A stretch of 61,575 nucleotides of DNA, the filler included, from Asterionella formosa (Eukaryota), in NCBI GenBank assembly GCA_002256025.1. It is 22 parts of 22 records of this genome, joined end to end, with 100 filler letters (N's around TTAATTAATTAA, not from the genome) between each part and the next. Parts side by side here need not be neighbours in the genome. Positions count along the whole stretch, not along the records: positions 33,686 to 36,387 come from NKIB01014930.1; 21 more parts are not named here. One strand, given 5' to 3'. How positions within the stretch are numbered: position 1 is the stretch's first letter; every line of letters begins with the position of its first letter. This document shows positions 5,525 to 59,166 of the stretch, piece after piece. Position numbers and translations under genes: made by a program. The notes beneath the pieces are model-generated. The model ran no database searches. It was not told where the DNA came from and was given only the letters and a program-made list of their open reading frames with translations.

Positions 5525-5624
5525 NNNNNNNNNNNNNNNNNNNNNNNNNNNNNNNNNNNNNNNNNNNNTTAATTAATTAANNNNNNNNNNNNNNNNNNNN
5601 NNNNNNNNNNNNNNNNNNNNNNNN

Positions 5625-10683: not shown

Positions 10684-13529
10684 ATGAGGGCCTTACCATA
10701 TCTGTAGATAGAACATACCCCTAAGTTGACCCATGACTGTATCTAAGCATGTGCAAAGTGGTCGTATTGGTGAAAGCTAATTTTACCTTAAACTATTTTA
10801 TGTACTTGTTCGTAATGTGTGGATGAAGGTACATCATAGAATTATTTTGGGAAAGAACGGACCTCGCAATGTGTAACGGCGAGCTTAAATCTGAAATGTG
10901 GCCAAGATAGGCTGAAAGATGAAGAAGTTGAAAATCGCGAAGTAACAATGGTAATTTTTTTCGGAGTTTTAGCGCTGGTATGTTTCGACGTAGTAGACAC
11001 ATCATGTAGAAGTAGTTTTATCACGATGAAGCTAGACAAAACTGCTCATTTATACAAAGGATTGTCACAACGAGGATGAGCTTGATGATTCAAGCGACAA
11101 TCTCTACTGCTAACTGGGATGTTTTGCTCCACTTTTCCACAGTGATNNNNNNNNNNNNNNNNNNNNNNNNNNNNNNNNNNNNNNNNNNNNTTAATTAATT
11201 AANNNNNNNNNNNNNNNNNNNNNNNNNNNNNNNNNNNNNNNNNNNNGGCATGTAGCCACCGAGAAGGGTATTACTGAGGCAATTCACAAACTAGCTATCG
11301 TCACTCCATTCGCTTACCTACTGCCCACTCATCGAGTGTAAATGTCAATTTTAGCTCGCTATAGCCCATCATAAAAAAAAATTTCGTATATTTCCTATCT
11401 TCACATCGAAATTTGCAATGGGTCCGATATTGCCCATCATTAAAATATTATTTGGATATTTCCTATCTTCGCATTTTGGCTTTTCAATTTACAGCACTTG
11501 CCCCTCGGTTATCCAGCCCTGGGATTGCCGAAGTCGGCAAGGGGTCTACCAGTACTGAAGGAAACAATTTTATATACTCTACAGATTTAATATTTTATAT
11601 GTAGAATTCACCTCGTTTTTGTTCGTCTCCTGAAAAGTGGACTCCGGCAATTCACCTTTCACCATGCCAATCGTCGTCCATCATGACCGGTTTGAAGCGA
11701 AATCAGTTCACTGATGATGCCAGTAGTGATTCATTTTCTAATGGATGCAGTTGGTTGTTGTATGATTGCTTGTCTTCTTGAGGGATTCATGTAGTTGCAT
11801 CGTCCATATTTCGTCGGACGAACGATGATATTGATACATCTGATGTTGGCGGCAAGTTTTTGCTCCGGTCATGCATCTGATGAGGCTGTATACTCGACCG
11901 TTAGTCACCTAGTCTACATACGTACGTGGTACTAAAAACAATCATGCATGGTTTAACCTAAACTTTAACACTTACTTTGAACACGTTATGATATATCTCT
12001 GTAGACTCGTTATTGTTTTTACGAGACCAGAATGTTAAATTAGATTGTTCACATATTGATTGATTTTATGTACCGTATGCCCGATTTCGTCCTCACAATT
12101 ATAATTCTCACTCTATCCTGCCTGCCATTGCTCAATTCGGGCTTGCAACAGGAACTTTCGACTTTCTCATCCCATCGTCTGCTGTGTGTTACGCTTGTTA
12201 GAGTGGATCGGTGAGTACAACAGTGAAACACTGAATGTAATCGTAGATACTAATTGTCGAAGTTCCGATTTGATTGCTTCCATGGTCCATTTTGATCGCT
12301 TCCATCGTTGTTTGTCGTTCCACCCTGGCTGTCGTTTTGTTTCGATAGTATATATCTATATAAGAACCAGTGTTTTTCCTGATGACTACTCTTTGACGAC
12401 ATATTGTCGTTGATCGTATTTGTTGATTTGCATAGTCGTTTACCATGATGTCAATATTGCCGCCAAGCAATGCTTTTCTTGTTCTAACGCACTTTGCTAC
12501 ATTTCTACTACGAGTTCGTATCACAAGCTACATAAATACTCAGATAGAGAGAGTCAATAGTGCTGGAGCAGCATGACGATCACGCTTGCTCAGAATGGAA
12601 TGATCAGGGTTGCTTGTTTGGTGCTGGGCAGAGTCATGACTGTGGCAGAAATACTGCTATGGTGTCAGGCTACTACAGCGATGCGCATGGTTGCAGCAAC
12701 CAGACCATTTACACTACATAACTATGCAGGTCTAAATTGGGTTCAGCTTTTTTCTTCTTCTTTCGGTCTTCGATTGTGTGGTGATGGAAAGTCAATGTTG
12801 CCAGTGTAAGTACAGTAGTACAATGGTTCACAATGCATACATCTCCGTTAAAACTCCAATTTTTCACTTCATTTCTAACCCAAAACAATTTTTTCTATTT
12901 CTCATTTGATGCAACTTATTACATCTCATTTCATTCTTTGGTTGCTCCAAACATCATGTTCAATTTTCATTGATGTTGCATGTTGTTACAATCATTCTCG
13001 TGTTTTTTATGCTTCTTGTAACATCCTATGCATATTACCGTTATTCTGGCTGTCATGCTAAAAATCGGCAATTTTAATGCCGAAAAATTCGATGTGTCCC
13101 ATATTGCCCTTAAATTAAAATTACTTAAGAAATTACTTAGAGCCTAAAAATTACTTAGAAGTACCCGAATGGCAAGACGATAGCTGGAGCGGGAATTGCC
13201 CATTCCTGTATCGAACCCCTGTATCGAGCCTGCGAACACAGTGGTACCAGCAAGTTGCGGTCATTTTGCTTAAATAAACAATTTATACGGGATAAAGAGA
13301 GCTACATGGTATTGTATATATGAGGTACAGTGTCGTACATTACCAGTGTACCGGTATCTGGTACTAGAATACCATGATATGATTGTTGTACATCCAAACG
13401 GTACACATCTAGCATAACAGCATTACGAATAAAAATATATGTCATAGTGTTCATCATAGTACATACCGGCAGCTATTTATATGACAATATTCTTAAAAAT
13501 TTCTTAGCAAATCTTGTTATTCCAAAACC

Positions 13530-13954
13530 ATGTCGAATCAATTGCATGCCAGAAAGAAACCAGTTGGGTCCGGCAACCTCGGATCTTTCGATGCGACTGA
13601 AGATCCGAGCAACAAAGGCAAATTAAAGGGGGCCGCTCAAACCATACCCGCTTCAATTGGAACTCTAGCTATTGCTCTATTCCTTTTCTATTCGTTGTGG
13701 AGGACAAGGGCAGAGGCAACACAAGATAATATTCCATCGGTACCCCGTTTTGGTACTTCCTCTGGACATTCGTACGTCACCGTGGTCATGCCCTCCGTGG
13801 TTAATCCTTCAGGAAGATCCACCCGTCTGGACACCATCGCTTCGACTTGGGGGCCGTTGTCTCATGCGATTTTTGTTTTGCACAATGTTTCTGAATTCCA
13901 ACAGGCACCGCACTTGGCGCTCAACGTTCAAACATTTCCTCAAACTCTCTTGGT
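13530..13954 (+). CDS. 5' part of a type II membrane glycosyltransferase, probably GT31/fringe-like (allele A)
   Basis: Short cytosolic N-terminus, one TM (IGTLAIALFLFYSLW), stem, then VTVVMPS...RLDTIASTWG...AIFV, resembling the GT31 R-x-TW motif. Confidence 0.65.
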
Positions 13955-16861: not shown

Positions 16862-19567
16862 ACCACTTCCCAGTTGTTGCGGACCTACCTGGGCTTACCA
16901 GAATCCCAGAGATGGGGATTGCCCCACCACGGCCGGAATCACTGTACCGGCGGATTGTGATGGAGGAGAAGGAACTCAAAGTAACCGTTACTGTGGCTAG
17001 TAGTAACTATTGGCAGCCACTAGCTGACTCGCTGGATGAAGACCTGGAGGATGTAATCGAGTGTTCAAATTCACTTGAAAACCCCACCAGTTACCACCAG
17101 GAAAGGTTGGATGGTATGGCCAAGAAGTTCACTACAACATGTCACCAGGTGGCAGAGGACCTGAACCTCCACCAACGGGTGGCGGGACTAAACCCACCAA
17201 GAGTGACAGGACAGGTACGTCGGGCGATTGAGACCCGAAGGAGGATCTTCCGGGAAACCCGGAGGGCGGAGTCGCGAGGAGACCGTGAAGATGTAGCACG
17301 GCTTGGGGACATGTACAAGGCTGCCAAAGAGAGGGCGCAGAAGGTGATCCGCCTCTCGGGTAGGCGGGCATGGTATAAGGCAATTAGGGAGGCTCATGTC
17401 AATATGCGCGAGAAACCTCGCCATTATTGGCGGTGGGCCTCAGCGACTGCAGGATGGCGCCAGAAGAGCAGCATCGCAGGTGTCCAACCGGTCCTTGACC
17501 CGGATGGACGCCTGCTGACAGCTTTGACTGATATTCATCAGGCCTGGGGAGCGCACTATGCCTCTCTAGCAGCAGATGAAACCGGTCATAGCCAGGAGGC
17601 CCAATATTGGGAGAAATTTGACCCGCACCCACAGGCAAATGAGGGGATCCGTTCGCTGGACGAACCCTTCACAACCTCCGATATTTGGACTGCCCTAAGG
17701 AAGATGAAGAGCCATCGGGCTCCGGGCGGTGACGGGATACCCACTGAACTGCTACAGGCATGTTTGGCGGAGGAACGGGCCCTACTTTCCCACCTTCAAA
17801 ACTATCGGGAAGAGGAGCCCACCCCGCCACCATCCACTCCAATGACGGACTCACTAGGAACCCTACTCAACTTTGCGTATGAGAGGGGACTGGTGGCCCA
17901 GTCGTGGGCTGAGTCACTAGTCGTCTCAATACCTAAGAAAGGGGACTTGGCTGATATGAACAACTATCGGGGGATTTCGCTCATGGCCACTGTCCTCAAG
18001 GTGGTGTGTGTGATCCTTGGTACCAGGATAAATGTGGAAGCGGAATCTCGAGGGCTGTTTAGCCGAGCCCAGGCTGGCTTTCGCCAGAGAGAGGAATGTG
18101 TAACCCAGGTAGCCTGTGTCATGGAAATCATACAACGCCGGAGGATAGTGGGAGAGCCGACCTACGTGGTATTCGTAGACCTCAAGAAGGCATATGATAC
18201 GGTGCCCCACGAGGCGCTCTTTGCGAAACTATCCCGGTTTGGGATCAGGGGACGTTGCCTTGCTTTTCTACGTGCCCTTTATCGCAGCAGTACAATCAGG
18301 GTACGAGTGGGGGGTGGCTTGACTGCCCTTTACTCGGACCCCTGCAGACTGTTGCGAGGTGTGCGGCAGGGTTGCCCTCTTTCGCCTATACTGTTCAACA
18401 TCTTCATTGATGACTTGGCAGTGGGGACGGAGGAGAGCGGTGCCCTGGTACCAACTGGGGACAGTCGCACATGGCGGAACTCCACACCCAAACTGACAGT
18501 GGGATGTACCCTCTTTGCTGATGATGCGGCCGGAATCTGCCCCTCCCTGGAGGCGGCCAAACGGTTCTGTACGCACGTTACCAACTGGGTTACAGCTAAC
18601 GAGATGAGTGTGGGCATAGGGAAGTGCGGGCTGATGGAATTCCTACCGCCAGACCCAGGTTCGGCCACCGAACCGCTTGTCCCTGGACAAGATGTGGCTG
18701 GACTGGAACTGGAGGGACTTCCACTCCCTGTTGTGGACAGATATATGTATCTGGGTGTCCTCATGACACCAGGTCTGTCTATCTCGTCTATGGTGGACCA
18801 TAGAGTCAAGCAAGGGCGGGCCACAGTTGCCACCTTGGTACCGTTTCTACGGTGCCCGGTGGTACCAATGGCCATGCGTTTGCTGACTGTTGCAGGAGTA
18901 GTTGCCCCCCGCCTCCTTTTTGGGGCTGAGCTGTATGGTATGAACCGTCACCTTACGGACAAAATGCAGGTTCTTCTGAACCGATGCCTTAGGGCTAGCA
19001 TTGGAGCCAGGAGGGCAGGGGGTGTGCCATCAGTAGGCCTTTGGAAGGAGGCACGGATGTTGCCAATGTGTGCCTTGGCGGGTGCCCGACGGGCCAGAGC
19101 TTATGCCAAGGCCTCGGGTCTCAAAACCTGGCTTCAGGAATTGGTCCTAAGACCATTCCGAAGTCAGAAATGGACATGGTGCTCAGGGGGTCCGCGCTGG
19201 CTGAAACGCTATGCGCTCCCCCATGCACCGGTGTCTATTGTGGAGAGGTACTTGGGTGCTGGATGGCAGAGCCTGGAACCAAAGGTACTGGCTGAGGTAG
19301 TGAAAGCATGCATCTTGGAGAGAGAGTGTGGGATCCGACGGAACTTGACTCGTCCGTCGGGGGCCCGCACAGTGTGGTATGAGGGAGCCGGATTTGACAA
19401 GCATCCACTCACACGGTCACGTGTGGGGGGCAGTCCCAACGACCAAGCAGGACTGGCTTTGATAGTTCGGTGTCGGATTGGGGCATTTGTAACTGTCCCC
19501 ACCTTGGTGGGGTGGAAGCGAATGCCTCATAGGTATTTGAGGAAGTGTCCATTTTGTGGTATGGATG
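16862..19567 (+). mobile_element. Non-LTR retrotransposon (LINE) ORF2 region, copy 1
   Basis: Whole contig is one GC-rich open frame with APE end, RT and CCHC start. Confidence 0.95.
16864..19567 (+). CDS. LINE ORF2 protein, partial at both ends: end of APE endonuclease, reverse transcriptase, start of C-terminal zinc finger
   Basis: Frame open from 16864 ((D)HFPV, APE end); APGGDGI, NYRGISL, QAGFR, FVDLKKAYDTV, GVRQGCPLSP, LFADD, YMYLG, CPFC. Confidence 0.95.
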
Positions 19568-22472: not shown

Positions 22473-24365
22473 AACATGAAAAAGCAAAAATATTTCATAC
22501 TTTTGTTATGAAAGGAATGTTCCTATGTAAGCGAGGAAGACAGGACATTCAACCAGGAATTGCATTTCTGGCAACCCAAACTATCGAACCGAATGAAGGC
22601 GATTGGGCAAAATTAGTCAAGATCATGAATTTCTTGAAAGCAACTCAGAACGAGGTTGCATCTATGAGTGCTGATGACACTCAGAGCATTAAATGGTACG
22701 TTGATGCGGCGTTTGCAGTGCACAAAGATTTTAAAAGTCACACAGGAGCGACAATGTCACTTGGAAACGGAATTATTTGTTCTATGTCCACGAAACAGAA
22801 AGTGAACACTAGAAGTTCGAAATCCAAGATTTGGATGAAGAACCAGTAAATGAAACTGAAAATGAAGAGGCATTGTTAGAAGTCAATCCAAGCACTCAGG
22901 ATGGCACAGACCCAAATGTTAGAACTACAAGGTCTGGAAGAGTCTCAAGACCACCATCAAAACTAACTATGGTCCAAAATCATTTGCATACCCAAGCACA
23001 CTGTCGAGAAGAGTACACGACTGATAATGCGAAAGTGATCGCAAAGACAATGGGTTATATGAATGAGATGTGTATAGATAAAGAAGCATTTCACTTTGTT
23101 CAGTCATACAGCTTATGGAAAGGCCTCAAGAAATTTGGCCAGAAAGGAAGAGACGCTGCGTATAAAGAAATGAAACAACTACATGATAGAGTTGTATTTG
23201 AACCGATTAGGATTGAAGACCTAACTGATATTGAAAACCGACGTGCAATGGAAAGTCTAATTTTTTTGGTTGAAAAGAGAGACAAGAGCATTAAAGGCAG
23301 AGCATGTGCTAATGGCAGTTCGCAACGTGAATACATGGAAAGAGATGAAGTAGCTAGTCCAACCACCATGACTGAATCTGTTATGATAACAGCAACAATT
23401 GATGCGAAGCAAAATCGCGATGTTATGACTGCAGATATACCCAATGCATTTGTGCAAGTGGATATCAATGAGAAAGAAAAAGGGGAGCAAATCATTATGA
23501 AGATTAGAGGTTTACTTGTCAATATGTTGACAGAACTCGCTCAGCCCCAAGACTTATGAAAATATGTTGATTATGAAGGTAACAACAAGGTCCTATATGT
23601 TAAAAATATGTTGTTTATGAAGGGAACAACAAGGTCCTATATGTTAGGATGATCAAGGCATTATATGGCATGTTACAGTCATCATTATTAAATTACAAGA
23701 AATTTCGGAAGGATATTGAGTCAATTGGATTCAAGGTCAACCCATATGATTCATGCCTTGCAAATCGCATTCTTAATGGCAAACAGCACACAGTTACTTG
23801 GCACGTAAACGATTTGAAAATCAAGTCACGTGGACAGCAAAGTGAATGATCAATTTTTGGAATGGCTCAAAAAGAAATACGCTTCTGACGAAATTGGTGA
23901 GGTCAAGGTCATGCGTGGAAAGAAGCATGATTTTTTGGCAATGACACTAGATTTCTCTCTTCCAGGAGTGTTGAGGGTGGACATGTCCAAATATGTGAAA
24001 TCAATGATTAATGATTTTCCGGATAAACTTGAAGGTGTCGGAAAATTCCCATGGACAGATAAATTGTTCACAGTTGATACAAAATCAAAAGAAGCTTGAA
24101 TATGAAAAAGCAAAAATGTTTCATGCTTTTGTTCCTATGCAAACGAGGAAGGCAGGACATTCAACCAGGAATTGCATTTCTGGCAACCCAAATTACTGAA
24201 CCTAATGAAGGTGATTGGGTAAAATTAGTCAAGATCATGAATTTCTTGAAAGCAACTCAGGATGAGGTTGCATCTATGAGTGCTGATGACACTCAGAGCA
24301 TTAAATGGTATGTTAATGCAGCGTTTGCAGTACACAAGGATTTTAAAAGTCACACTGGAGCTAAA
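22473..24365 (+). mobile_element. Rearranged, frameshifted copia pol fragments of the same family as 1-2031
   Basis: RT C-terminus/RNase H start (22473-22820) is joined back to the pre-RT spacer, followed by a second RT and RNase H start. About 44-bp tandem duplication at 23559-23645; several frameshifts; HVDD mutated to HVND. Confidence 0.93.
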
Positions 24366-24386
24366 TCTAAGCCGCGAAATACGCCA

Positions 24387-32698: not shown

Positions 32699-33685
32699 TA
32701 TTTTTTCTTTTCACATCAAAAGTACATATATATTGGACTTAACATATATTCTCCTTTACAAAATGGGGCTTGGTGCTAATTTAAGAGTATCATAATGTGT
32801 TTGAAATCCATTACTTTAACCATCTTGCAGTGTGGGTACTGCATTTAAGACAATATTGGGTCAGTCTCGTTTCCCATCTATCTGGGCGCAAAAGAATTAA
32901 TGAAGCCATGATGATACAGCCATTATTAAGAGCCAACTCTGACAGTTTGAAAAGGTAAACTTTCACCTATTTCAAATACATTGCACCACCTTTCTAGGAA
33001 TGACTGTCAAACTGTTTTGCAATGCTGCATTTCTTCATAGATAGCTAAAACTGGTCTTCTATGAAACATGCGTTTATTTTCAAATGGATACCAGCCAGCA
33101 GCACAAACACTCTTTGAACATTTTGACACACTGTTCCTATCATGATCCTCTTTGTCAAGAGAACAGTACTGCCTGAACCTCCCGCAGTTAGAGAATCCTG
33201 AAACTTCAAGTGTCAAAAATAGATAATAACAAAGCCACAATCTTGGCAAGGTATACGTGGTCCCTAAGGGCTGATCTTAACAGAGATACAATTTTTTTAA
33301 ATTTTTTTGCATCTTCAGGAAAAACAAAAATTACTGAATAAGAACCTGGCTCAATAACGGCAAATCAGATTGACTTTTTTCGTGTCTCTGCAAACATGTG
33401 CATCAGATTCAGCAAAATTATAGCGATGTGGTATAATCAATCCTACTGCGCTTCACTTTTACAAACTAATGCCATTGCAGGATTTTTTGGATGCAAGGGA
33501 CTAATCATTCGACCTAACACATGAGCGCCTGTCATCGAAATGGTAAACAAGGCACAACACAATAACTAGTAAGCTAGAATCAGCCNNNNNNNNNNNNNNN
33601 NNNNNNNNNNNNNNNNNNNNNNNNNNNNNTTAATTAATTAANNNNNNNNNNNNNNNNNNNNNNNNNNNNNNNNNNNNNNNNNNNN

Positions 33686-35679
33686 TTCTTTGAGAGTCCC
33701 AAGAAAACCGCACGACGCGAACGAGGTTTCCATCTAGGAAGTTTCTTTCCATCCTGCATGGTAGAATCCAGGACATACACGGGACTTCCCCATACTTGGA
33801 GATCATTGCATTTGTGGGTGGGCCATTTAGTGCCTGAGAAAATGTCAAGAGGTGCCAGGCCATTTTTCCTGTTAGGGAGATGATTATGAATGTACACAGC
33901 ATAGTCAACAGCCATAGGCCAAAGGGTAGTATCAGCAGTGTCACACCAGCGGATGGCAGCATGCAGCATCATAGTTCGCGCCATAGACATAATGGTTTGA
34001 ATGTTCCGCTCTGCAACACCATTATGATGATGAGCACCTACTCCAGCAAAGTGGCTGACTTGTTTGAAAGCTGCCAATTCTGCAACATATTCCTTATCAG
34101 TGAAAGCCTTTCCATTGTCTGAAAGGTAAGATTGAACAATAACTCCAGAGTCACGAGCAGCAGCCTCAAATTTGTGTTTTGAAACAAGAGTTTCATGAGA
34201 GGTCAGAGAGACTTGATGTTCCACATGAACAAAACCGGAAGCATGGTCAACAAACAGACATCCTCCTGAGTACATTTGCTCTTGAACCGTTTTTCCTTTC
34301 GAATCATAGTGTCGTCCCTTAGTGTGACAAACAAAGTGATCGACTGAGACTTGCTGCCCTGGTAGGAGGTCTCCTTTCTTAAGTGCACCACAGCTTGATG
34401 GAACAGGTGTAGAAACGCTGCTGGAAGTTGGTCGACGTTTTGCCTTTCCAAATTGGCAGGAGGCACAGCGAGGTAGGACACAGTTGGATGCTGAACGGTG
34501 CAGATTCTTTTGCCCTTCACTTGTTGCAAGGGCTCCTGATCTCAACAGTAATTGTATTGATTCAAAGTGTAGATGGCCAAGACGAAAGTGCCAACGCAAT
34601 AGTTCCTTCTGAGCTTCGGTTAGATTTTGATTGTTGGAATCGGTAACACAGAGGTTAAGCTCTTGAGCACAGCGATTGACATCCACTTCATTGTATCCAT
34701 AGCTGATAGGAAGGTTGTTGTTGGTTGAGAAAGGGACAACAATGTCTGGTGCTCCACCTCCACAGATACGAATATGATCAGACTCAACTTGACCATAGGC
34801 GGGAGTTTTAGATCCAACAAAACCTTGGATATAAGATTGCCAACTGAGGAGTCGTTGGTGAGCTCCAGGAGTATAGTAAGCAGAGAGCTCAAGACAAGGG
34901 AGAGTACCATCAACTGCTGGAACCATCCACCTGACCTTGCCTTGACCTTCAATTGATAATCCTGCTGCTAGTCCTTTCAGTGTGACAGGTGTGGTCAAGG
35001 GGGTTATCCCATCAACAAAGTCCTGGATATTGTGACTGACTGTACTGGATGCTCCTGTGTCCCAAATGAAGGAGAACTGTGCTGCTGAGGAGAGCCCAAG
35101 GACAGTAGTTGGACTTTTAGTGGCAAGACAACAAAATGGACTTGGCACTGGATTACTGGCAGCAATTGTTGGTGTATAGAGAAGACTCCGAGCCTGACAC
35201 CAATGTTCAACATGTGATCTGAATAGGTTTTGTATACCTGCAATCTGGGATGAGTAAGGCACATGGGGAGTCTTGAGAACAATTGACTGTGGAACAGGGT
35301 CAGTGGCTGAGATAAACTTGGGAGGTTTCCTGATACAGTCAGACCTGCATTGTCGAAGCCGAAGTGGATATGAGCGAGAGACAATTGACATGAGACTGAA
35401 AGGTTGCTGGAGTTGCTTCTGATGTCGATAATAACGGCGACGTGTAGACCAGTGCAGCAGCTTGGCAGGAGGGTGGGGATGAGCATAGTGCATGAAGTGA
35501 AGCCAGAGCACTTGAGAGAAGACAACCAACCAGAAGCACACACAAGGTCCCAGAGAAGCAAGGACGTGGTTGTGATTCAGAAGACTGATAAGAGGGAAGA
35601 ACTCAAAGGAAAGGGTCAATCTCTGACAAAGTATCCAAAGAAGAAATGAAAGTGGATCGGGGCCCCCCCGACCCCCAAG
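33686..35679 (-). CDS. pol: Copia Pol (hydrophobic leader, aspartic protease, integrase), 3'-partial, in frame with gag
   Basis: WDTGAS protease; WHFRLGH...CASC zinc-binding motif; VSVD, SDNG, NGVAER integrase core; KLPRWKPRSRRAVFLG. Confidence 0.92.
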
Positions 35680-36387
35680 TCAAAATTGAGTTGCACAAAT
35701 TCCAAATCCATCATTGACACCAGCAAGGTTTGCACTTATAACAGGTGCTTCAATGGCAGGAGCAGGTGTGGGGGCAGCAGGAGAAGCAGGAACAACCGCA
35801 TTTGGAGGTTTTCCATGAGTAGATCCAAGGTGTGTTGAGGTCCAAAGTCCCAGGCCTTTGCGACACTTGTTACAGAAATTGAATGTTTTATCACCAACAA
35901 CTTTGACAGTTGGGTCTCCAGGCTTGGGTGCTACTTCACGCCAGTTGTGCTTCTTAGGATCTGTGGGCTTGGGAGGAGGAACAGGCACATCACCACAAGG
36001 TTTAGCAGTAATGGCTGCTTGAACAAGCGCATTGAATGATGCTTGGTCCATTCCAGCATAAAACAGGGAAGGGGCCTGCTGCATATCCTTTACAGTGCTG
36101 GCAGGGGACCAATCACCATTGTCCAAGAGAGAGCGGTAGGCTTCTTCAGCAAGATCAAGGATAGCTGTGTAGTGAAAACCCTTTCTGACCATGAACCTTT
36201 TGGCTGAATCTTTGGATAGGTAGGCTGAGTCTGAGAGAGCAGAGTCAAGGTCAAGACGCTTGGGATGCCAAATGGCACGAAAACTCTCAACTGAAACCTG
36301 ACAGAGTGCCTTAATGATTGCCAACACTAACACCCATTCAAACTGATGGGCATTTTCAAGTTCACGGCAAATTCTGCGGATCTTGTT
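35680..36387 (-). CDS. gag: Copia Gag, 5'-partial
   Basis: Frame open from the contig end. C-x2-C...H-x4-H knuckle (CNKCRKGLGLWTSTHLGSTH) and Pro/Ala-rich tail; TGA at 35682-35680. Confidence 0.8.
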   Translation of the reverse strand, partial: NKIRRICRELENAHQFEWVLVLAIIKALCQVSVESFRAIWHPKRLDLDSALSDSAYLSKDSAKRFMVRKGFHYTAILDLAEEAYRSLLDNGDWSPASTVKDMQQAPSLFYAGMDQASFNALVQAAITAKPCGDVPVPPPKPTDPKKHNWREVAPKPGDPTVKVVGDKTFNFCNKCRKGLGLWTSTHLGSTHGKPPNAVVPASPAAPTPAPAIEAPVISANLAGVNDGFGICATQF

Positions 36388-36487
36388 NNNNNNNNNNNNN
36401 NNNNNNNNNNNNNNNNNNNNNNNNNNNNNNNTTAATTAATTAANNNNNNNNNNNNNNNNNNNNNNNNNNNNNNNNNNNNNNNNNNNN

Positions 36488-38481
36488 TTCTTTGAGAGTC
36501 CCAAGAAAACCGCACGACGCGAACGAGGTTTCCATCTAGGAAGTTTCTTTCCATCCTGCATGGTAGAATCCAGGACATACACGGGACTTCCCCATACTTG
36601 GAGATCATTGCATTTGTGGGTGGGCCATTTAGTGCCTGAGAAAATGTCAAGAGGTGCCAGGCCATTTTTCCTGTTAGGGAGATGATTATGAATGTACACA
36701 GCATAGTCAACAGCCATAGGCCAAAGGGTAGTATCAGCAGTGTCACACCAGCGGATGGCAGCATGCAGCATCATAGTTCGCGCCATAGACATAATGGTTT
36801 GAATGTTCCGCTCTGCAACACCATTATGATGATGAGCACCTACTCCAGCAAAGTGGCTGACTTGTTTGAAAGCTGCCAATTCTGCAACATATTCCTTATC
36901 AGTGAAAGCCTTTCCATTGTCTGAAAGGTAAGATTGAACAATAACTCCAGAGTCACGAGCAGCAGCCTCAAATTTGTGTTTTGAAACAAGAGTTTCATGA
37001 GAGGTCAGAGAGACTTGATGTTCCACATGAACAAAACCGGAAGCATGGTCAACAAACAGACATCCTCCTGAGTACATTTGCTCTTGAACCGTTTTTCCTT
37101 TCGAATCATAGTGTCGTCCCTTAGTGTGACAAACAAAGTGATCGACTGAGACTTGCTGCCCTGGTAGGAGGTCTCCTTTCTTAAGTGCACCACAGCTTGA
37201 TGGAACAGGTGTAGAAACGCTGCTGGAAGTTGGTCGACGTTTTGCCTTTCCAAATTGGCAGGAGGCACAGCGAGGTAGGACACAGTTGGATGCTGAACGG
37301 TGCAGATTCTTTTGCCCTTCACTTGTTGCAAGGGCTCCTGATCTCAACAGTAATTGTATTGATTCAAAGTGTAGATGGCCAAGACGAAAGTGCCAACGCA
37401 ATAGTTCCTTCTGAGCTTCGGTTAGATTTTGATTGTTGGAATCGGTAACACAGAGGTTAAGCTCTTGAGCACAGCGATTGACATCCACTTCATTGTATCC
37501 ATAGCTGATAGGAAGGTTGTTGTTGGTTGAGAAAGGGACAACAATGTCTGGTGCTCCACCTCCACAGATACGAATATGATCAGACTCAACTTGACCATAG
37601 GCGGGAGTTTTAGATCCAACAAAACCTTGGATATAAGATTGCCAACTGAGGAGTCGTTGGTGAGCTCCAGGAGTATAGTAAGCAGAGAGCTCAAGACAAT
37701 GGAGAGTACCATCAACTGCTGGAACCATCCACCTGACCTTGCCTTGACCTTCAATTGATAATCCTGCTGCTAGTCCTTTCAGTGTGACAGGTGTGGTCAA
37801 GGGGGTTATCCCATCAACAAAGTCCTGGATATTGTGACTGACTGTACTGGATGCTCCTGTGTCCCAAATGAAGGAGAACTGTGCTGCTGAGGAGAGCCCA
37901 AGGACAGTAGTTGGACTTTTAGTGGCAAGACAACAAAATGGACTTGGGACTGGATTACTGGCAGCAATTGTTGGTGTATAGAGAAGACTCCGAGCCTGAC
38001 ACCAATGTTCAACATGTGATCTGAATAGGTTTTGTATACCTGCAATCTGGGATGAGTAAGGCACATGGGGAGTCTTGAGAACAATTGACTGTGGAACAGG
38101 GTCAGTGGCTGAGATAAACTTGGGAGGTTTCCTGATACAGTCAGACCTGCATTGTCGAAGCCGAAGTGGATATGAGCGAGAGACAATTGACATGAGACTG
38201 AAAGGTTGCTGGAGTTGCTTCTGATGTCGATAATAACGGCGACGTGTAGACCAGTGCAGCAGCTTGGCAGGAGGGTGGGGATGAGCATAGTGCATGAAGT
38301 GAAGCCAGAGCACTTGAGAGAAGACAACCAACCAGAAGCACACACAAGGTCCCAGAGAAGCAAGGACGTGGTTGTGATTCAGAAGACTGATAAGAGGGAA
38401 GAACTCAAAAGAAAGGGTCAATCTCTGACAAAGTATCCAAAGAAGAAATGAAAGTGGATCGGGGCCCCCCCGACCCCCAAG
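36488..38481 (-). CDS. pol: Copia Pol PR-IN, 3'-partial (copy 2)
   Basis: Same motifs as copy 1. Confidence 0.92.
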
Positions 38482-39189
38482 TCAAAATTGAGTTGCACAA
38501 ATTCCAAATCCATCATTGACACCAGCAAGGTTTGCACTTATAACAGGTGCTTCAATGGCAGGAGCAGGTGTGGGGGCAGCAGGAGAAGCAGGAACAACCG
38601 CATTTGGAGGTTTTCCATGAGTAGATCCAAGGTGTGTTGAGGTCCAAAGTCCCAGGCCTTTGCGACACTTGTTACAGAAATTGAATGTTTTATCACCAAC
38701 AACTTTGACAGTTGGGTCTCCAGGCTTGGGTGCTACTTCACGCCAGTTGTGCTTCTTAGGATCTGTGGGCTTGGGAGGAGGAACAGGCACATCACCACAA
38801 GGTTTAGCAGTAATGGCTGCTTGAACAAGCGCATTGAATGATGCTTGGTCCATTCCAGCATAAAACAGGGAAGGGGCCTGCTGCATATCCTTTACAGTGC
38901 TGGCAGGGGACCAATCACCATTGTCCAAGAGAGAGCGGTAGGCTTCTTCAGCAAGATCAAGGATAGCTGTGTAGTGAAAACCCTTTCTGACCATGAACCT
39001 TTTGGCTGAATCTTTGGATAGGTAGGCTGAGTCTGAGAGAGCAGAGTCAAGGTCAAGACGCTTGGGATGCCAAATGGCACGAAAACTCTCAACTGAAACC
39101 TGACAGAGTGCCTTAATGATTGCCAACACTAACACCCATTCAAACTGATGGGCATTTTCAAGTTCACGGCAAATTCTGCGGATCTTGTT
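38482..39189 (-). CDS. gag: Copia Gag, 5'-partial (copy 2)
   Basis: Protein identical to copy 1; TGA at 38484-38482. Confidence 0.8.
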   Translation of the reverse strand, partial: NKIRRICRELENAHQFEWVLVLAIIKALCQVSVESFRAIWHPKRLDLDSALSDSAYLSKDSAKRFMVRKGFHYTAILDLAEEAYRSLLDNGDWSPASTVKDMQQAPSLFYAGMDQASFNALVQAAITAKPCGDVPVPPPKPTDPKKHNWREVAPKPGDPTVKVVGDKTFNFCNKCRKGLGLWTSTHLGSTHGKPPNAVVPASPAAPTPAPAIEAPVISANLAGVNDGFGICATQF

Positions 39190-47690: not shown

Positions 47691-50390
47691 ACCACTTCCC
47701 AGTTGTTGCGGACCTACCTGGGCTTACCAGAATCCCAGAGATGGGGATTGCCCCACCACGGCCGGAATCACTGTACCGGCGGATTGTGATGGAGGAGAAG
47801 GAACTCAAAGTAACCGTGGCTAATAGTAACTATTGGCAGCCACTAGCTGACTCGCTGGAAGAGGACCTGGAGGATGTAATCGAGTGGTCACATTCACTTG
47901 AAAACCCCACCAGTTACCACCAGGAAAGGTTGGATGGTATGGCCAAGAAGTTCACTACAACATGTCACCAGGTGGCAGAGGACCTGAACCTCCACCAACG
48001 GGTGGCGGGACTAAACCCACCAAGAGTGACAGGACAGGTACGTCGGGCGATTGAGACCCGAAGGAGGATCTTCCGGGAAACCCGGAGGGCGGAGTCGCGA
48101 GGAGACCGTGAAGATGCAGCACGGCTTGGGGACATGTACAAGGCTGCCAAAGAGAGGGCGCGGAAGGTGATCCGCCTCTCGGGTAGGCGGGCATGGTATA
48201 AGGCAATTAGGGAGGCTCATGTCACTATGCGCGAGAAACCTCGCCATTATTGGCGGTGGGCCTCAGCGACTGCAGGATGGCGCCAGAAGAGCAGCATCGC
48301 AGGTGTCCAACCGGTCCTTGACCCGGATGGACGCCTGCTGACAGCTTTGACTGATATTCATCAGGCCTGGGGAGCGCACTATGCCTCTCTAGCAGCAGAT
48401 GAAACCGGTCATAGCCAGGAGGCCCAATATTGGGAGAAATTTGACCCGCAACCACAGGCAAATGAGGGGATCCGTTCGCTGGACGAACCCTTCACAACCT
48501 CCGATATTTGGACTGCCCTGAGGAAGATGAAGAGCCATCGTGCTCCGGGCGGTGACGGGATACCCACTGAACTGCTACAGGCATGTTTGGCGGAGGAACG
48601 GGCCCTACTTTCCCACCATCAAAACTATCGGGAAGAGGAGCCCACCCCGCCACCATCCACTCCAATGACGGACTCACTAGGAACCCTACTCAACTTTGCG
48701 TATGAGAGGGGACTGGTGGCCCAGTCATGGGCTGAGTCACTGGTCGTCTCAATACCTAAGAAAGGGGACTTGGCTGATATGAACAACTATCGGGGGATTT
48801 CGCTCATGGCCACTGTCCTCAAGGTGGTGTGTGTGATCCTTGGTACCAGGATAAATGTGGAAGCGGAATCTCGAGGGCTGTTTAGCCGAGCTCAGGCTGG
48901 CTTTCGCCAGAGAGAGGAATGTGTAACCCAGGTGGCCTGTGTCATGGAAATCATACAACGCCGGAGGATAGTGGGAGAGCCGACCTACGTGGTATTCGTA
49001 GACCTCAAGAAGGCATACGATACGGTGCCCCACGAGGCGCTCTTTGCGAAACTATCCCGGTTTGGGATTAGGGGACGTTGCCTTGCTTTTCTACGTGCCC
49101 TTTATCGCAGCAGTACAATCAGAGTACGAGTGGGGGGTGGCTTGACTGCCCTTTACTCGGACCCCTGCAGACTGTTGCGAGGTGTGCGGCAGGGCTGCCC
49201 TCTTTCGCCTATACTGTTCAACATCTTCATTGATGACTTGGCAGTGGGGACGGAGGAGAGCGGTGCCCTGGTACCAACTGGGGACAGTCGCACATGGCGG
49301 AACTCCACACCCACACTGACAGTGGGATGTACCCTTTTTGCTGATGATGCGGCCGGAATCTGCCCCTCCCTGGAGGCGGCCAAACGGTTCTGTACGCACG
49401 TTACCAACTGGGTTACAGCTAACGAGATGAGTGTGGGCATAGGGAAGTGCGGGCTGATGGAATTCCTACCGCCAGACCCAGGTTCGGCCACTGAACCGCT
49501 TGTCCCTGGACAAGATGTGGCTGGACTGGAACTGGAGGGACTTCCACTCCCTGTTGTGGACAGATATATGTATCTGGGTGTCCTCATGACACCAGGTCTG
49601 TCTATCTCGTCTATGGTGGACCATAGAGTCAAGCAAGGGCGGGCCACAGTTGCCACCTTGGTACCGTTTCTACGGTGCCCGGTGGTACCAATGGCCATGC
49701 GTTTGCTGACTGTTGCAGGAGTAGTTGCCCCCCGCCTCCTTTTTGGGGCTGAGCTGTATGGTATGAACCGTCACCTTACGGACAAAATGCAGGTTCTTCT
49801 GAACCGATGCCTTAGGGCTAGCATTGGAGCCAGGAGGGCAGGGGGTGTGCCATCAGTAGGCCTTTGGAAGGAGGCACGGATGTTGCCAATGTGTGCCTTG
49901 GCGGGTGCCCGACGGGCCAGAGCTTATGCCAAGGCCTCGGGTCTCAAAACCTGGCTTCAGGAATTGGTCCTAAGACCATTCCGAAGTCAGAAATGGACAT
50001 GGTGCTCGGGGGGTCCGCGCTGGCTGAAACGCTATGCGCTCCCCCATGCACCGGTGTCTATTGTGGAGAGGTACTTGGGTGCTGGATGGCAGAGCCTGGA
50101 ACCAAAGGTACTGGCTGAGGTAGTGAAAGCATGCATTTTGGAGAGAGAGTGTGGGATCCGACGGAACTTGACTCGTCCGTCGGGGGCCCGCACAGTGTGG
50201 TATGAGGGAGCCGGATTTGACAAGCATCCACTCACACGGTCACGTGTGGGGGGCAGTCCCAACGACCAAGCAGGACTGGCTTTGATAGTTCGGTGTCGGA
50301 TTGGGGCATTTGTAACTGTCCCCACCTTGGTGGGGTGGAAGCGAATGCCTCATAGGTATTTGAGGAAGTGTCCATTTTGTGGTATGGATG
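47691..50390 (+). mobile_element. Non-LTR retrotransposon (LINE) ORF2 region, copy 2
   Basis: Same ends as 16862-19567, 6 bp shorter. Confidence 0.95.
47693..50390 (+). CDS. LINE ORF2 protein, partial (APE end, RT, CCHC start), copy 2
   Basis: Uninterrupted frame with the same RT motifs as copy 1. Confidence 0.95.
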
Positions 50391-53188: not shown

Positions 53189-55560
53189 NNNNNNNNNNNN
53201 NNNNNNNNNNNNNNNNNNNNNNNNNNNNNNNNTTAATTAATTAANNNNNNNNNNNNNNNNNNNNNNNNNNNNNNNNNNNNNNNNNNNNGGCATGTAGCCA
53301 CCGAGAAGGGTATTACTGAGGCAATTCACAAACTAGCTATCGTCACTCCATTCGCTTACCTACTGCCCACTCATCGAGTGTAAATGTCAATTTTAGCTCG
53401 CTATAGCCCATCATATAAAATATTTTTCGTATATTTCCTATCTTCACATCGAAATTTGCAATGGGTCCGATATTGCCCATCATTAAAAAATAATTTGGAT
53501 ATTTCCTATCTTCGCATTTTGGCATTACAATTAGTAGCACTTGCCCCTCGGTTATCCAGCCCTGGGATTGCCGAAATCGGCAAGGGGTCTACTGAAGGAA
53601 ACAATTTTATATACTCTCCAGATTTTAATAAGTTTTATATCTAGAATTCACCTCGTTTTTGTTCGTCTCCTGAAAAGTGGACTCCGGCAATTCACCTTTC
53701 ACCATGCCGATTGTCGTCCATCATGACCGGTTTGAAGCGAAATCAGTTCACTGATGATGCCAGTAGTGATTCATTGTCTAACGGATGCGGTTGGTTGTTG
53801 TATGATTGCTTGTCTTTTTGAGGGATTCATGTAGTTGCATCGTCCATATTTCGTTGGACGAACGAGGATGATATTGATACATCTGATGTTGGCGGCAAGT
53901 TTTTGCTCCGGTCATGCATCTGATGATGCTGGATACTCGACCGTTAGTCACCTAGTAGTCTACATATGTACGTGGTACTAAAAACAACCATGCATGGTTT
54001 AACCTAAACTTTAACACTTACTTTGAACATGTTATAATATTATCTCTGTAGACTCGGTATTGTTTTCACGAGACCAGAATGTTAAATTAGATTGTTCACA
54101 TATTGATTGATTTTACGTACTGTATGCCCGATTTCGTCCTCACAATTATAATTCTCACTCTATCCTGCCTGCCGTTGCTCAATTCGGGCTTGCAACAGGA
54201 ACTTTCGACTTTCTCATGAGCCCATCGTCTGCAGTGTGTTACGCTTGTTAGAGCGGATCGGTGAGTACAACAGTGAAACACTGAATGTGATCGTAGATAC
54301 TAATTGTCAAAGTTCCGATTTGATTGCTTCCATGGTCCATTTTGATTGCTTCCATCGTTGTTTGTCGTTCCACCCTGGCTGTCGTTTTGTTTCGATAGTA
54401 TATATCTATATAAGAACCATTGTTTTTCCCGATGACTACTCTTTGACGACATATTGTTTTTGATTGTATTTGTTGATTTGTATAGTCGTTTACCATGATG
54501 TCAATATTGCCGCCAAGCAATGCTTTTCTTGTTCTAACGCACTTTGCTACATTTCTACTACGAGTTCGTATCACAAGCTACATAAATACTCAGCTAGAGA
54601 GAGTCAATAGTGTTGGAGCAGCATGGCGATCACGCTTGCTCAGAATGGAATGATCAGGGTTGCTTGTTTGGTGCTGGGCGGAGGAATGACTGTGGCAGAA
54701 ATACTGCTCTGTTGTCAGGCTACTACAGCAATGCGCATGGTTGCAGCAACCAGACCATTTACACTACATAACTATGCAGTTCTAAATTGGGTTCAGCTTT
54801 TTTCTTCTTCTTTCGGTCTTCGATTGTGTGGTGATGGAAAGTCAATGTTGCCAGTGTAAGTACAGTAGTAGTACAATGATTCACAATGCATACATCTCCA
54901 TTGAAACTCCAATTTTTCAATTCATTTCTAACCTAAAACAATTTTTTCTATTTCTCATTTGATGCAACTTATTACATCTCATTTCATACTTTGGTTGCTC
55001 CAAACATCATGTTCAATTTTCATTCATGTTGCATGTTGTTACAATCACTCTCGTGTGTTTTATGCTTGTTGTACCATCCTATGCATATTACCGTTATTCT
55101 GGCTGTCATGCTAAAAATCGGCAATTTTAATGCCGAAAAATTCGATATTGCCCTTTAATAAAAATTACTTAAGAAATTACTTAGAGCCTAAAAATTACTT
55201 AGAAGTACCCGAATGGCAAGACGATAGCTGGAGCGGGAATTGCCCATTCCTGTATCGAACCTGCGAACACAGTGGTACCAGCAAGTTGCGGTCAGTTTGC
55301 TTAAATAAACAATTTATACGGGATAAAGAGAGCTACATGGTATTGTACATATGAGGTACAGTGTCGTACATTACCAAGGTACCCGTATCTGGTACTAGAA
55401 TACTATGATATGATTGTTGTACATGCAAACGGTACAGATCTAACATGACAGCATTACGAATAAAATTATATGTCATAGTGTTCATCATTGTACATACCGG
55501 CAGCTATTTATATGACAATATTCTTAAATATTTCTTAGCAAATCTTGTTATTCCAAAACC

Positions 55561-55985
55561 ATGTCGAATCAATTGCATGCCAGAAAGAAACCAGTTGGGT
55601 CCGGCAACCTCGGATCTTTCGATGCGACTGAAGATCCGAGTAACAAAGGCAAATTAAAGGGGGCCGCTCAAACCATACCCGCTTCAATTGGAATTCTAGC
55701 TATTGCTCTATTCCTTTTCTATTCGTTGTGGTGGACAAGGGCAGAAGCAACACAAGATAATATTCCATCGGTACCCCGTTTTGGTACTTCCTCTGGACAT
55801 TCGTACGTCACCGTGGTCATGCCCTCCGTGGTTAATCCTTCAGGAAGATCCACCCGTTTGGACACCATCGCTTCGACTTGGGGGCCGTTGTCTCATGCGA
55901 TTTTTGTTTTGCACAATGTTTCTGAATTCCAACAGGCACCGCACTTGGCGCTCAACGTTCAAACATTTCCTCAAACTCTCTTGGT
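55561..55985 (+). CDS. 5' part of GT31/fringe-like glycosyltransferase (allele B of 13530-13954)
   Basis: Two amino-acid differences from allele A (T/I, R/W); contig 53289-55985 is colinear with 11247-13954. Confidence 0.65.
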
Positions 55986-58779: not shown

Positions 58780-59166
58780 NNNNNNNNNNNNNNNNNNNNN
58801 NNNNNNNNNNNNNNNNNNNNNNNTTAATTAATTAANNNNNNNNNNNNNNNNNNNNNNNNNNNNNNNNNNNNNNNNNNNNATCAGCATAAAAATCTTCAAT
58901 GCAGAATTCTGAATAGATGCTTTTGATTGTATCATTCATATTTCCTCTATCACTGATAACACAATATGTTCCAAGCGCCGCTTTGATGTCGTCTACTGAT
59001 AAAATAAATAGAATCCAATGAGTCGAGAATCAAAATTTATAATGATTAGAAACCAAGACATGCGACACTTATTGACAAATGAATTAAGATGCATACTTCG
59101 TGACAAGTGAGTTAGATGGTTACTTAATGAATATGCTCACTTATTGTAAAAGCAAGGAAGATTATA

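Follow-up and report, generated by a model that had tools for sequence, protein, structure and literature searches.

Contig NKIB01014930.1 of the diatom Asterionella formosa (GenBank assembly GCA_002256025.1) occupies positions 33,686 to 36,387 of the 61,575-base window, the whole stretch of DNA analysed here, and harbours on its minus strand an internal piece of a Ty1/copia-type long terminal repeat (LTR) retrotransposon. In this element, the gag and pol frames are separated by a single in-frame UGA, followed after a few nucleotides by a predicted G+C-rich hairpin. Judged by related elements, the gag-UGA-pol arrangement is a real and selected feature, and it is probably functional. We assign a probability of roughly 0.7 to programmed readthrough of the UGA, helped by the 3′ stem-loop.

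The UGA junction and its predicted hairpin

On the minus strand, the junction reads CAA UUU UGA CUU GGG GGU CGG GGG GGC CCC GAU CCA; the UGA occupies 35682-35680, and the following (+4) base is C. Frame 1 of the contig, counted from 36387, comprises 900 codons, and the UGA is its single stop. This agrees with the preliminary description of the locus, in which a lone UGA divides gag and pol in one frame with both flanks intact, and the first in-frame AUG lies more than 60 codons past the stop (found at codon +63, 35493-35491). The same TGA was found in independent DNA and RNA assemblies. The preliminary description also pointed to 60 stop-free nucleotides after the UGA. This stretch is open and in frame as stated, but such a short stretch is not evidence by itself, because the first 62 post-stop codons were equally open in 3757 of 20000 composition-matched shuffles. 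The post-stop sequence is C/U-rich, and has few stops in any frame. Over the entire distance of 205 codons up to the protease motif, only 7 of 20000 composition-matched shuffles lacked a stop. A reassignment of UGA to an amino acid in the host was considered as well, and rejected by reasoning from its frequency, because UGA occurs only once per 900 to about 2000 in-frame codons.

The 9-bp G+C-rich stem reported 5 nt past the stop was recovered as the minimum-energy fold of a 38-nt segment, at -18 kcal/mol (z -1.89, equalled by 7 of 200 shuffles). The 45-nt segment following the stop ranks in the top 0.8% for stability among 886 such segments of its own contig. This is a candidate stimulatory structure, predicted to lie no more than about 8 nt downstream of the stop. 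No Rfam match was present in 35400-35900 at E up to 1. The pseudoknot signal of the type known from Moloney murine leukaemia virus (MuLV) and Tca2 was not recognised, the spacer being CUUGG (5 nt) and the loop GGG, and no dedicated pseudoknot search was run. The loop would not be able to join a pseudoknot, because with 3 nt it is too short for further pairing.

Contigs from RNA libraries run collinearly across the stop. These are X8 record 16 (whole stretch), X14 record 6 (polyA, 34823-36387) and X17 record 15 (35621-36387), which derive from three libraries of two studies, one of them polyA-selected. Splicing had been named as a point to be checked; at contig level, the RNA sequences cross the stop unspliced, and no splice joint across the junction was detected in the 4 runs examined. 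The unspliced form is present in the RNA libraries, a presence which by itself leaves room for splicing.

Conservation of the junction in related elements

We compared the window contig with 80 metagenome loci that a pol alignment had retrieved, and a protease match was obtained in 71 rows. Ten of these rows possess gag-TGA-pol in frame 0, namely the Asterionella contig, L001, L003, L004, L005, L057, L047, L048, L063, and L010. Single gag-pol open reading frames (ORFs) were found in 27 rows, a -1 overlap in 2, and 32 rows were uninformative. The junction stop is TGA in ten out of ten. L003 encodes 579 and 1509 open codons on the two sides of the stop, and carries terminal direct repeats of 254 nt that are 98% alike. 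In L048 the open frames comprise 687 and 1313 codons, and the pol frames of L047 and L004 comprise 1317 and 1578 codons, respectively. None of these four loci has a stop other than the junction TGA. L001, which is 99% identical to the window contig, contains further pol stops, including a premature TAA (L001:1323-2648, 442 codons) absent from the window contig, which points to decay of this copy or to a fault of its assembly.

A quick maximum-likelihood tree of 52 protease-integrase rows places nine of the ten TGA rows in one clade of 18 rows (SH-aLRT 100), in which they form four lineages 0.9-1.2 substitutions per site apart. This clade also includes both frameshift rows and three single-ORF rows. 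The other clade, with 34 rows, contains 24 single ORFs and one TGA row, the decayed L010. Linker lengths differ among the TGA lineages, from 61 to 304 codons, while frame 0 and exactly one stop are maintained. An alignment of stop position and frame had been proposed as a check; the stop position is kept in nine gag-only proteins, and the in-frame TGA with pol in frame 0 in four divergent lineages. As the compared sequences indicate, the junction is a single in-frame stop between two frames under selection, and it is conserved in relatives.

The preliminary description emphasised the UGA-C context, and UGA followed by C or CU is presented as leaky in a passage of PMC10085805. While UGA itself occurs in 10 of 10 TGA rows, the base in position +4 varies: it is C in the Asterionella element and L057, whereas L003, L004, L005, and L047 carry G, and L048 and L063 carry A. 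Because relatives carry UGA-G or UGA-A, the structure rather than UGA-C is the shared feature. The Asterionella element, L057 and L003-L005 have in common UGA-N5-(G/U)GGUC(G/A)(G/A), and L047, L048, and L063 share UUC-UGA-N3-GCCUGCCAGC.

Predicted stems begin 1-8 nt after the stop in every TGA lineage. The 45-nt segments after the stop have stability ranks of 0.008, 0.087, 0.045, 0.079, 0.029, and 0.006 within their own elements, that is, among the most stable 0.6-8.7%, and the z values of the junction folds against shuffles are modest across lineages (-0.6 to -1.9). The stem pair C13-G25, C(35670)-G(35658), is replaced by U-A in a variant from an RNA library (X17 record 15; plus-strand changes 35670 G>A and 35658 C>T), with an amino acid substitution resulting from each of the two. 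In a DNA contig of low depth (X1 record 3), only the first change is present, with U.G at 35670/35658, together with an in-frame CUU insertion that extends the spacer from 5 to 8 nt. In L047 and L048, whose stem starts 7 nt after the UGA, stem pair 8 is G-C in one and A-U in the other, and a further two pairs differ by way of G.U. Three compensatory or wobble changes, in the family of the window element and in L047/L048, thus keep the pairs, in support of the stem.

Ahead of the first AUG, the post-stop codons of the pairs L003/L004 and L047/L048 are free of stops in frame 0, and the two alternative frames are closed there. The synonymous divergence (dS) after the stop is lower than in gag in both pairs (0.73 vs 1.41, and 0.70 vs 1.19, respectively), which fits an overlapping RNA signal.

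At the protein level, gag relatives were searched among longer proteins (5 matches), among proteins of near length (4 matches), and among 1.84 billion scanned cluster representatives. Each of the five matches among the longer proteins is a gag-only ORF (442-534 aa) with the ending ...QF, and none of them is fused to pol; their identities are 98% (P0126), 56% (P0127), 49% (P0128), 49% (P0129), and 51% (P0130). In the near-length search, P0122 (86%) and P0123 (97%) end in ...ICATQF, and the remaining two out of four matches are truncated forms. The cluster representatives included 847 gag relatives. Among the best 150 of these 847, about 70 are separate ORFs with a length of 400-620 aa, and 13 are longer than 1000 aa, a size expected of fused forms; P0131 and P0183 end in ...GLGIxxHF, and P0133 ends in ...GLGIYQM. 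Altogether, nine gag-only proteins with identities down to 49% share the C-terminus ...[QH]F at the position of the stop. DNA encoding P0127-P0130 was not found among the 80 metagenome loci.

Sisters of L057 (SH-aLRT 98), the loci L040 and L041 have overlapping gag and pol, with pol in the -1 frame. Both possess in-phase slippery heptamers (A_AAU_UUU and G_GGA_AAC, at L040:1682 and L041:2310) about 12 nt before the gag stop, followed by a common GCCUGGUAA(A/U)GGCG stretch. Because these two loci use -1 frameshift signals, recoding to lower Pol appears to be a habit of the 18-row clade. A scan of viral contigs did not confirm any relatives.

Readthrough and alternative explanations

The preliminary description proposed that a structured readthrough signal sets the Gag:Pol ratio. 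The conserved stop, the in-frame TGA in four lineages, the stable predicted stems and the unspliced RNA contigs are in support of this proposal. Because relatives keep the UGA-plus-hairpin layout, the enzymes are probably produced by occasional readthrough. Most ribosomes on the full-length RNA would terminate at the gag UGA and yield Gag. A minority would decode the UGA via a near-cognate tRNA, and stay in frame to produce a Gag-Pol fusion. This fusion would pass the hydrophobic and basic linker before reaching the protease, the integrase, and, beyond the contig, the reverse transcriptase. Stimulation probably comes from the stem-loop that lies shortly after the stop. We infer from sequence that readthrough occurs, as well as its rate and the stem-loop as its driver.

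Several observations weigh against readthrough. The +4 C is not kept, and other lineages carry G or A. Protein constraint after the stop is weak, with ratios of nonsynonymous to synonymous divergence (dN/dS) of 0.55 (46 codons, L003/L004) and 0.83 (33 codons, L047/L048). Seven of the gag-only relatives (P0127-P0131, P0133, and P0183) are known from protein alone, so that their stop codon and pol frame are not visible. Compared with shuffles, the hairpin has no more than a moderate advantage (z -1.89), and the longer folds of 91 nt (z -0.07) and 61 nt (z -0.81) have none. A structure common to the four lineages was not found, but the consensus fold (-1.16 kcal/mol) is uninformative, because MAFFT misaligned the junctions and the alignment was poor. 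Contigs drop rare spliced forms, and RNA libraries may carry DNA. Finally, in Tca2, the one copia-type case put to the test, the junction alone failed to drive readthrough in Saccharomyces cerevisiae (PMC2194720).

The stop could also be kept while Pol is obtained in another way, through an internal AUG (codon +63 or about +100, on a subgenomic or internally promoted RNA), through re-initiation, or through a non-canonical bypass like that proposed for Tca2. In-frame AUGs do precede the protease, and public ORF calls such as P0002 begin there. The weak protein constraint after the stop would agree with such a route, as would the behaviour of the Tca2 junction, which contained a minor promoter and did not direct readthrough in S. 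cerevisiae (PMC2194720). However, separate initiation would not require frame 0 and exactly one stop, which the four lineages maintain despite linkers of 61-304 codons. Moreover, L003, L004, L047, and L048 lack an AUG for 40-63 post-stop codons, yet frame 0 is open there and the other frames are closed, and the hydrophobic stretch ahead of the AUGs is conserved. We therefore regard these routes as unlikely.

Drosophila copia is controlled by splicing, and a small in-frame intron might similarly remove the UGA from some transcripts of the Asterionella element. A pyrimidine tract ending in CAG (35625-35623) is present 55 nt past the stop, GT occurs upstream at 35720, 35718, and 35696, and the segment from GT(35718) to CAG(35623) is 96 nt long and in frame. 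Nevertheless, only the weak donor GTCAAT yields an in-frame product, and the other combinations meet stops in other frames. The RNA-library contigs are collinear, no joint was detected in the 4 runs, and other lineages have a different sequence at this place, yet retain the TGA and the stem. Such an intron is accordingly given very little credence. Least probable of all is an ordinary nonsense mutation in a defunct copy, or an artefact of the assembly. This might be suspected from a short and unplaced contig, from the extra pol stops of the 99% identical L001, and from the decay of L010, the sole TGA row outside the clade. However, the stop position recurs in nine gag-only proteins down to 49% identity, independent assemblies of DNA and of RNA contain the TGA, and the flanking frames are intact.

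The element, its setting and comparable systems

Coordinates of the features are given in Table 1. The pol frame of the contig possesses a D-T-G protease motif, which precedes the Pfam domain PF13976 gag_pre-integrs (E 2.3e-07) and an integrase region. The public protein P0002 (1330 aa) is 100% identical over the shared part, and extends into PF07727 RVT_2. The order protease-integrase-reverse transcriptase, with reverse transcriptase seen via P0002, identifies the element as a Ty1/copia-type LTR retrotransposon. Named database matches are diatom proteins, from Phaeodactylum tricornutum and Fragilaria crotonensis, and by these closest named relatives the element belongs, at lineage level, to the diatom CoDi lineage. 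The gag frame was without Pfam match in a search of the contig frames. It is 98% identical to the full gag-only ORF P0126 (462 aa), and both finish at the same residue. A protein of P. tricornutum shares 38% identity in the gag part, and 58% in the pol part. Gag ORFs of the relatives (P0126-P0131, P0133, P0183, and others) tend toward an aromatic last residue, either ...GLGIxxQF or HF, and in many cases ...W, such as ...CGW in L057. An aromatic residue before the gag stop may be part of the recoding context or of a protease site.

Table 1. Features of the element and of its surroundings in the window
Feature	Position	Strand	Basis
In-frame UGA between gag and pol, context CAA UUU UGA CUU G	35680..35682	-	Read in sequence; C-terminus recurs in 9 gag-only relatives
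First in-frame AUG after the UGA, codon +63	35491..35493	-	Sequence
Predicted G+C-rich hairpin: 9-bp stem 35674-35666 with 35662-35654, loop GGG, 5-nt spacer 35679-35675	35654..35674	-	Predicted fold
gag, C-terminal 235 codons, ending ...GFGICATQF, 5′ end cut by contig end	35683..36387	-	98% identity to P0126
Post-stop linker, 205 codons open in frame 0: hydrophobic stretch, then Arg/Lys-rich stretch, to protease motif	35065..35679	-	Frame and hydropathy
N-terminal part of pol with protease (FIWDTGAS) and integrase, truncated at contig end	33688..35064	-	Motif, Pfam, P0002
Unplaced contig, 2702 bp: internal piece of Ty1/copia-type (CoDi-like) LTR retrotransposon (end of gag, UGA, linker, protease, integrase)	33686..36387	-	Linkers on both sides; Pfam gag_pre-integrs; P0002 match
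Artificial linker N44-TTAATTAATTAA-N44	36388..36487	.	Lies between the two element contigs; recurs at 33586-33685
Further contig carrying this piece of the element, stop 38484-38482	36488..39189	-	3 differences in 2702 bases

The linker after the stop contains one or two hydrophobic stretches resembling membrane spans (Kyte-Doolittle 19-residue mean 1.6-2.35), followed by an Arg/Lys-rich stretch with 10-19 K+R per 40 residues. This hydrophobic-then-basic order is common to the Asterionella element, P0006, P0011, P0015, P0016, the single-ORF protein P0056, L003, L005, and L057. L047 and L048 have a short linker without this module. In the stop-bearing elements, the module would be made only after recoding. 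One relative of the eukaryotic copia polyprotein, P0022, is filed under a bacterial metagenome-assembled genome (Gaiellaceae), which is most likely a binning error.

The window consists of 22 unplaced contigs, which are sorted by size (about 2.71 falling to about 2.69 kb) and artificially chained. We found 42 runs of exactly 44 N, paired around TTAATTAATTAA, which gives a stop in all six frames; the linkers are located at 2713-2812, 5525-5624, and so on to 58780-58879. Because the window is such an artificial chain, adjacency of features across linkers is meaningless. Both gag and pol of the contig described are cut by contig ends. The preliminary description mentioned an identical second copy. 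Stop and hairpin are the same in it, but it is a separate contig and not a tandem copy, because a linker lies between the two, and it differs in 3 of 2702 bases (35608, 35146, and 34898; 99.9% identity), none of which affects stop or hairpin. By their near-identity, the two contigs are two assemblies of one family, whether alleles, redundant contigs or two insertions. A tblastn search of the polyprotein against the window revealed no further copia piece besides these two contigs.

Other contigs of the window also occur as near-duplicate pairs over their whole length, 11247-13954 with 53289-55985 (95.3%), and 16862-19567 with 47691-50390 (98.9%). These pairs suggest that many of the unplaced pieces are repeats or alternative haplotypes. 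Positions 100-1678 and 22473-24366 share inverted matches of 91-96% over about 350-785 bases, which connect the first contig with the one at about 22.4-24.4 kb and represent another repeat family.

Sequencing runs carrying DNA of the element include freshwater or lake samples, and the host is likely to be a freshwater diatom. In RNA and DNA libraries from lakes and rivers, variants 90-95% alike over 34344-35536 were found beside the near-identical form (X17 records 9 and 13; X1 records 2 and 3). In one DNA variant, 4 nt are inserted behind 35322, and the frame would be disrupted by them.

The preliminary description held that copia elements usually rely on one ORF, splicing or frameshifting. 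Frameshift and single-ORF relatives were indeed observed, but readthrough is already on record for a copia-type element, Tca2 (PMC2194720), and is therefore not a new strategy for the copia group. In Tca2 (pCal) of Candida albicans, a Ty1/copia element, gag and pol are split by one in-frame UGA with a predicted RNA structure few nucleotides 3′ (PMC2194720). The Asterionella element is similar to Tca2 in superfamily, in the single in-frame UGA, and in the predicted 3′ RNA structure. In contrast to the 8-nt purine-rich spacer and predicted pseudoknot of Tca2 (PMC2194720), which also has another host, it possesses a 5-nt spacer and a simple predicted hairpin.

Similar in the in-frame gag-TGA-pol are the Ty3/gypsy elements Tj1, Tosmo1-3, and Tcry1 of fission yeasts, whose TGA followed by CT is interpreted as programmed readthrough, and transposition of Tj1 requires the stop (PMC10085805). 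They belong to another superfamily and conserve an 8-nt GAA-TGA-CT (PMC10085805), whereas in the elements studied here the +4 base is C, G or A and the stem-loop is shared. In Moloney murine leukaemia virus, a textbook case, readthrough of about 5% at one stop sets the gag-pol ratio, and a spacer is followed by RNA structure (PMC2194720). With MuLV, the Asterionella element shares gag and pol in frame, the one stop, the spacer and the 3′ structure; unlike it, MuLV is a retrovirus with UAG, a pseudoknot and a purine-rich 8-nt spacer (PMC2194720).

Alphavirus 3′ stem-loops lift UGA readthrough up to 10-fold (PMC3159437). The readthrough signals of alphaviruses and plant viruses, with UGA-C and a 3′ stem-loop, are functionally the nearest model for a simple stem-loop stimulator, but those belong to RNA viruses, and their structures are long, of about 150 nt, and unrelated in sequence. 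The CoDi elements of P. tricornutum and Thalassiosira pseudonana represent the same diatom copia lineage (Maumus et al. 2009, PMC2806351, main text). The word "readthrough" is absent from this main text, and no signal is described in it. A full-text literature search found no report of readthrough in diatom retrotransposons. Gao et al. reportedly surveyed gag-pol recoding in 2003.

Readthrough, -1 frameshift and single-ORF members occur side by side in the 18-row clade. Because the clade mixes these three strategies, it offers a compact natural series for swaps of Gag:Pol strategy. The clade may switch between UGA readthrough and -1 frameshifting, with the recoded part of the long-linker lineages opening with the hydrophobic and Arg-rich module, so that Gag-Pol, and not Gag, would be anchored in a membrane or directed to a compartment. 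This idea is speculative and we consider it improbable; if true, a membrane-directed Gag-Pol would be an unreported way to organise the assembly of retrotransposon particles.

To our knowledge, translational recoding has hardly been studied in diatoms. Coming from a diatom retrotransposon family that is expressed, the short conserved UGA-plus-hairpin cassette would lend itself readily to tests of readthrough in stramenopiles, and could serve diatom engineering as a tool to set protein ratios. For annotation, the gag and pol frames of such elements should be joined as one recoded gene, and not recorded as a broken element.

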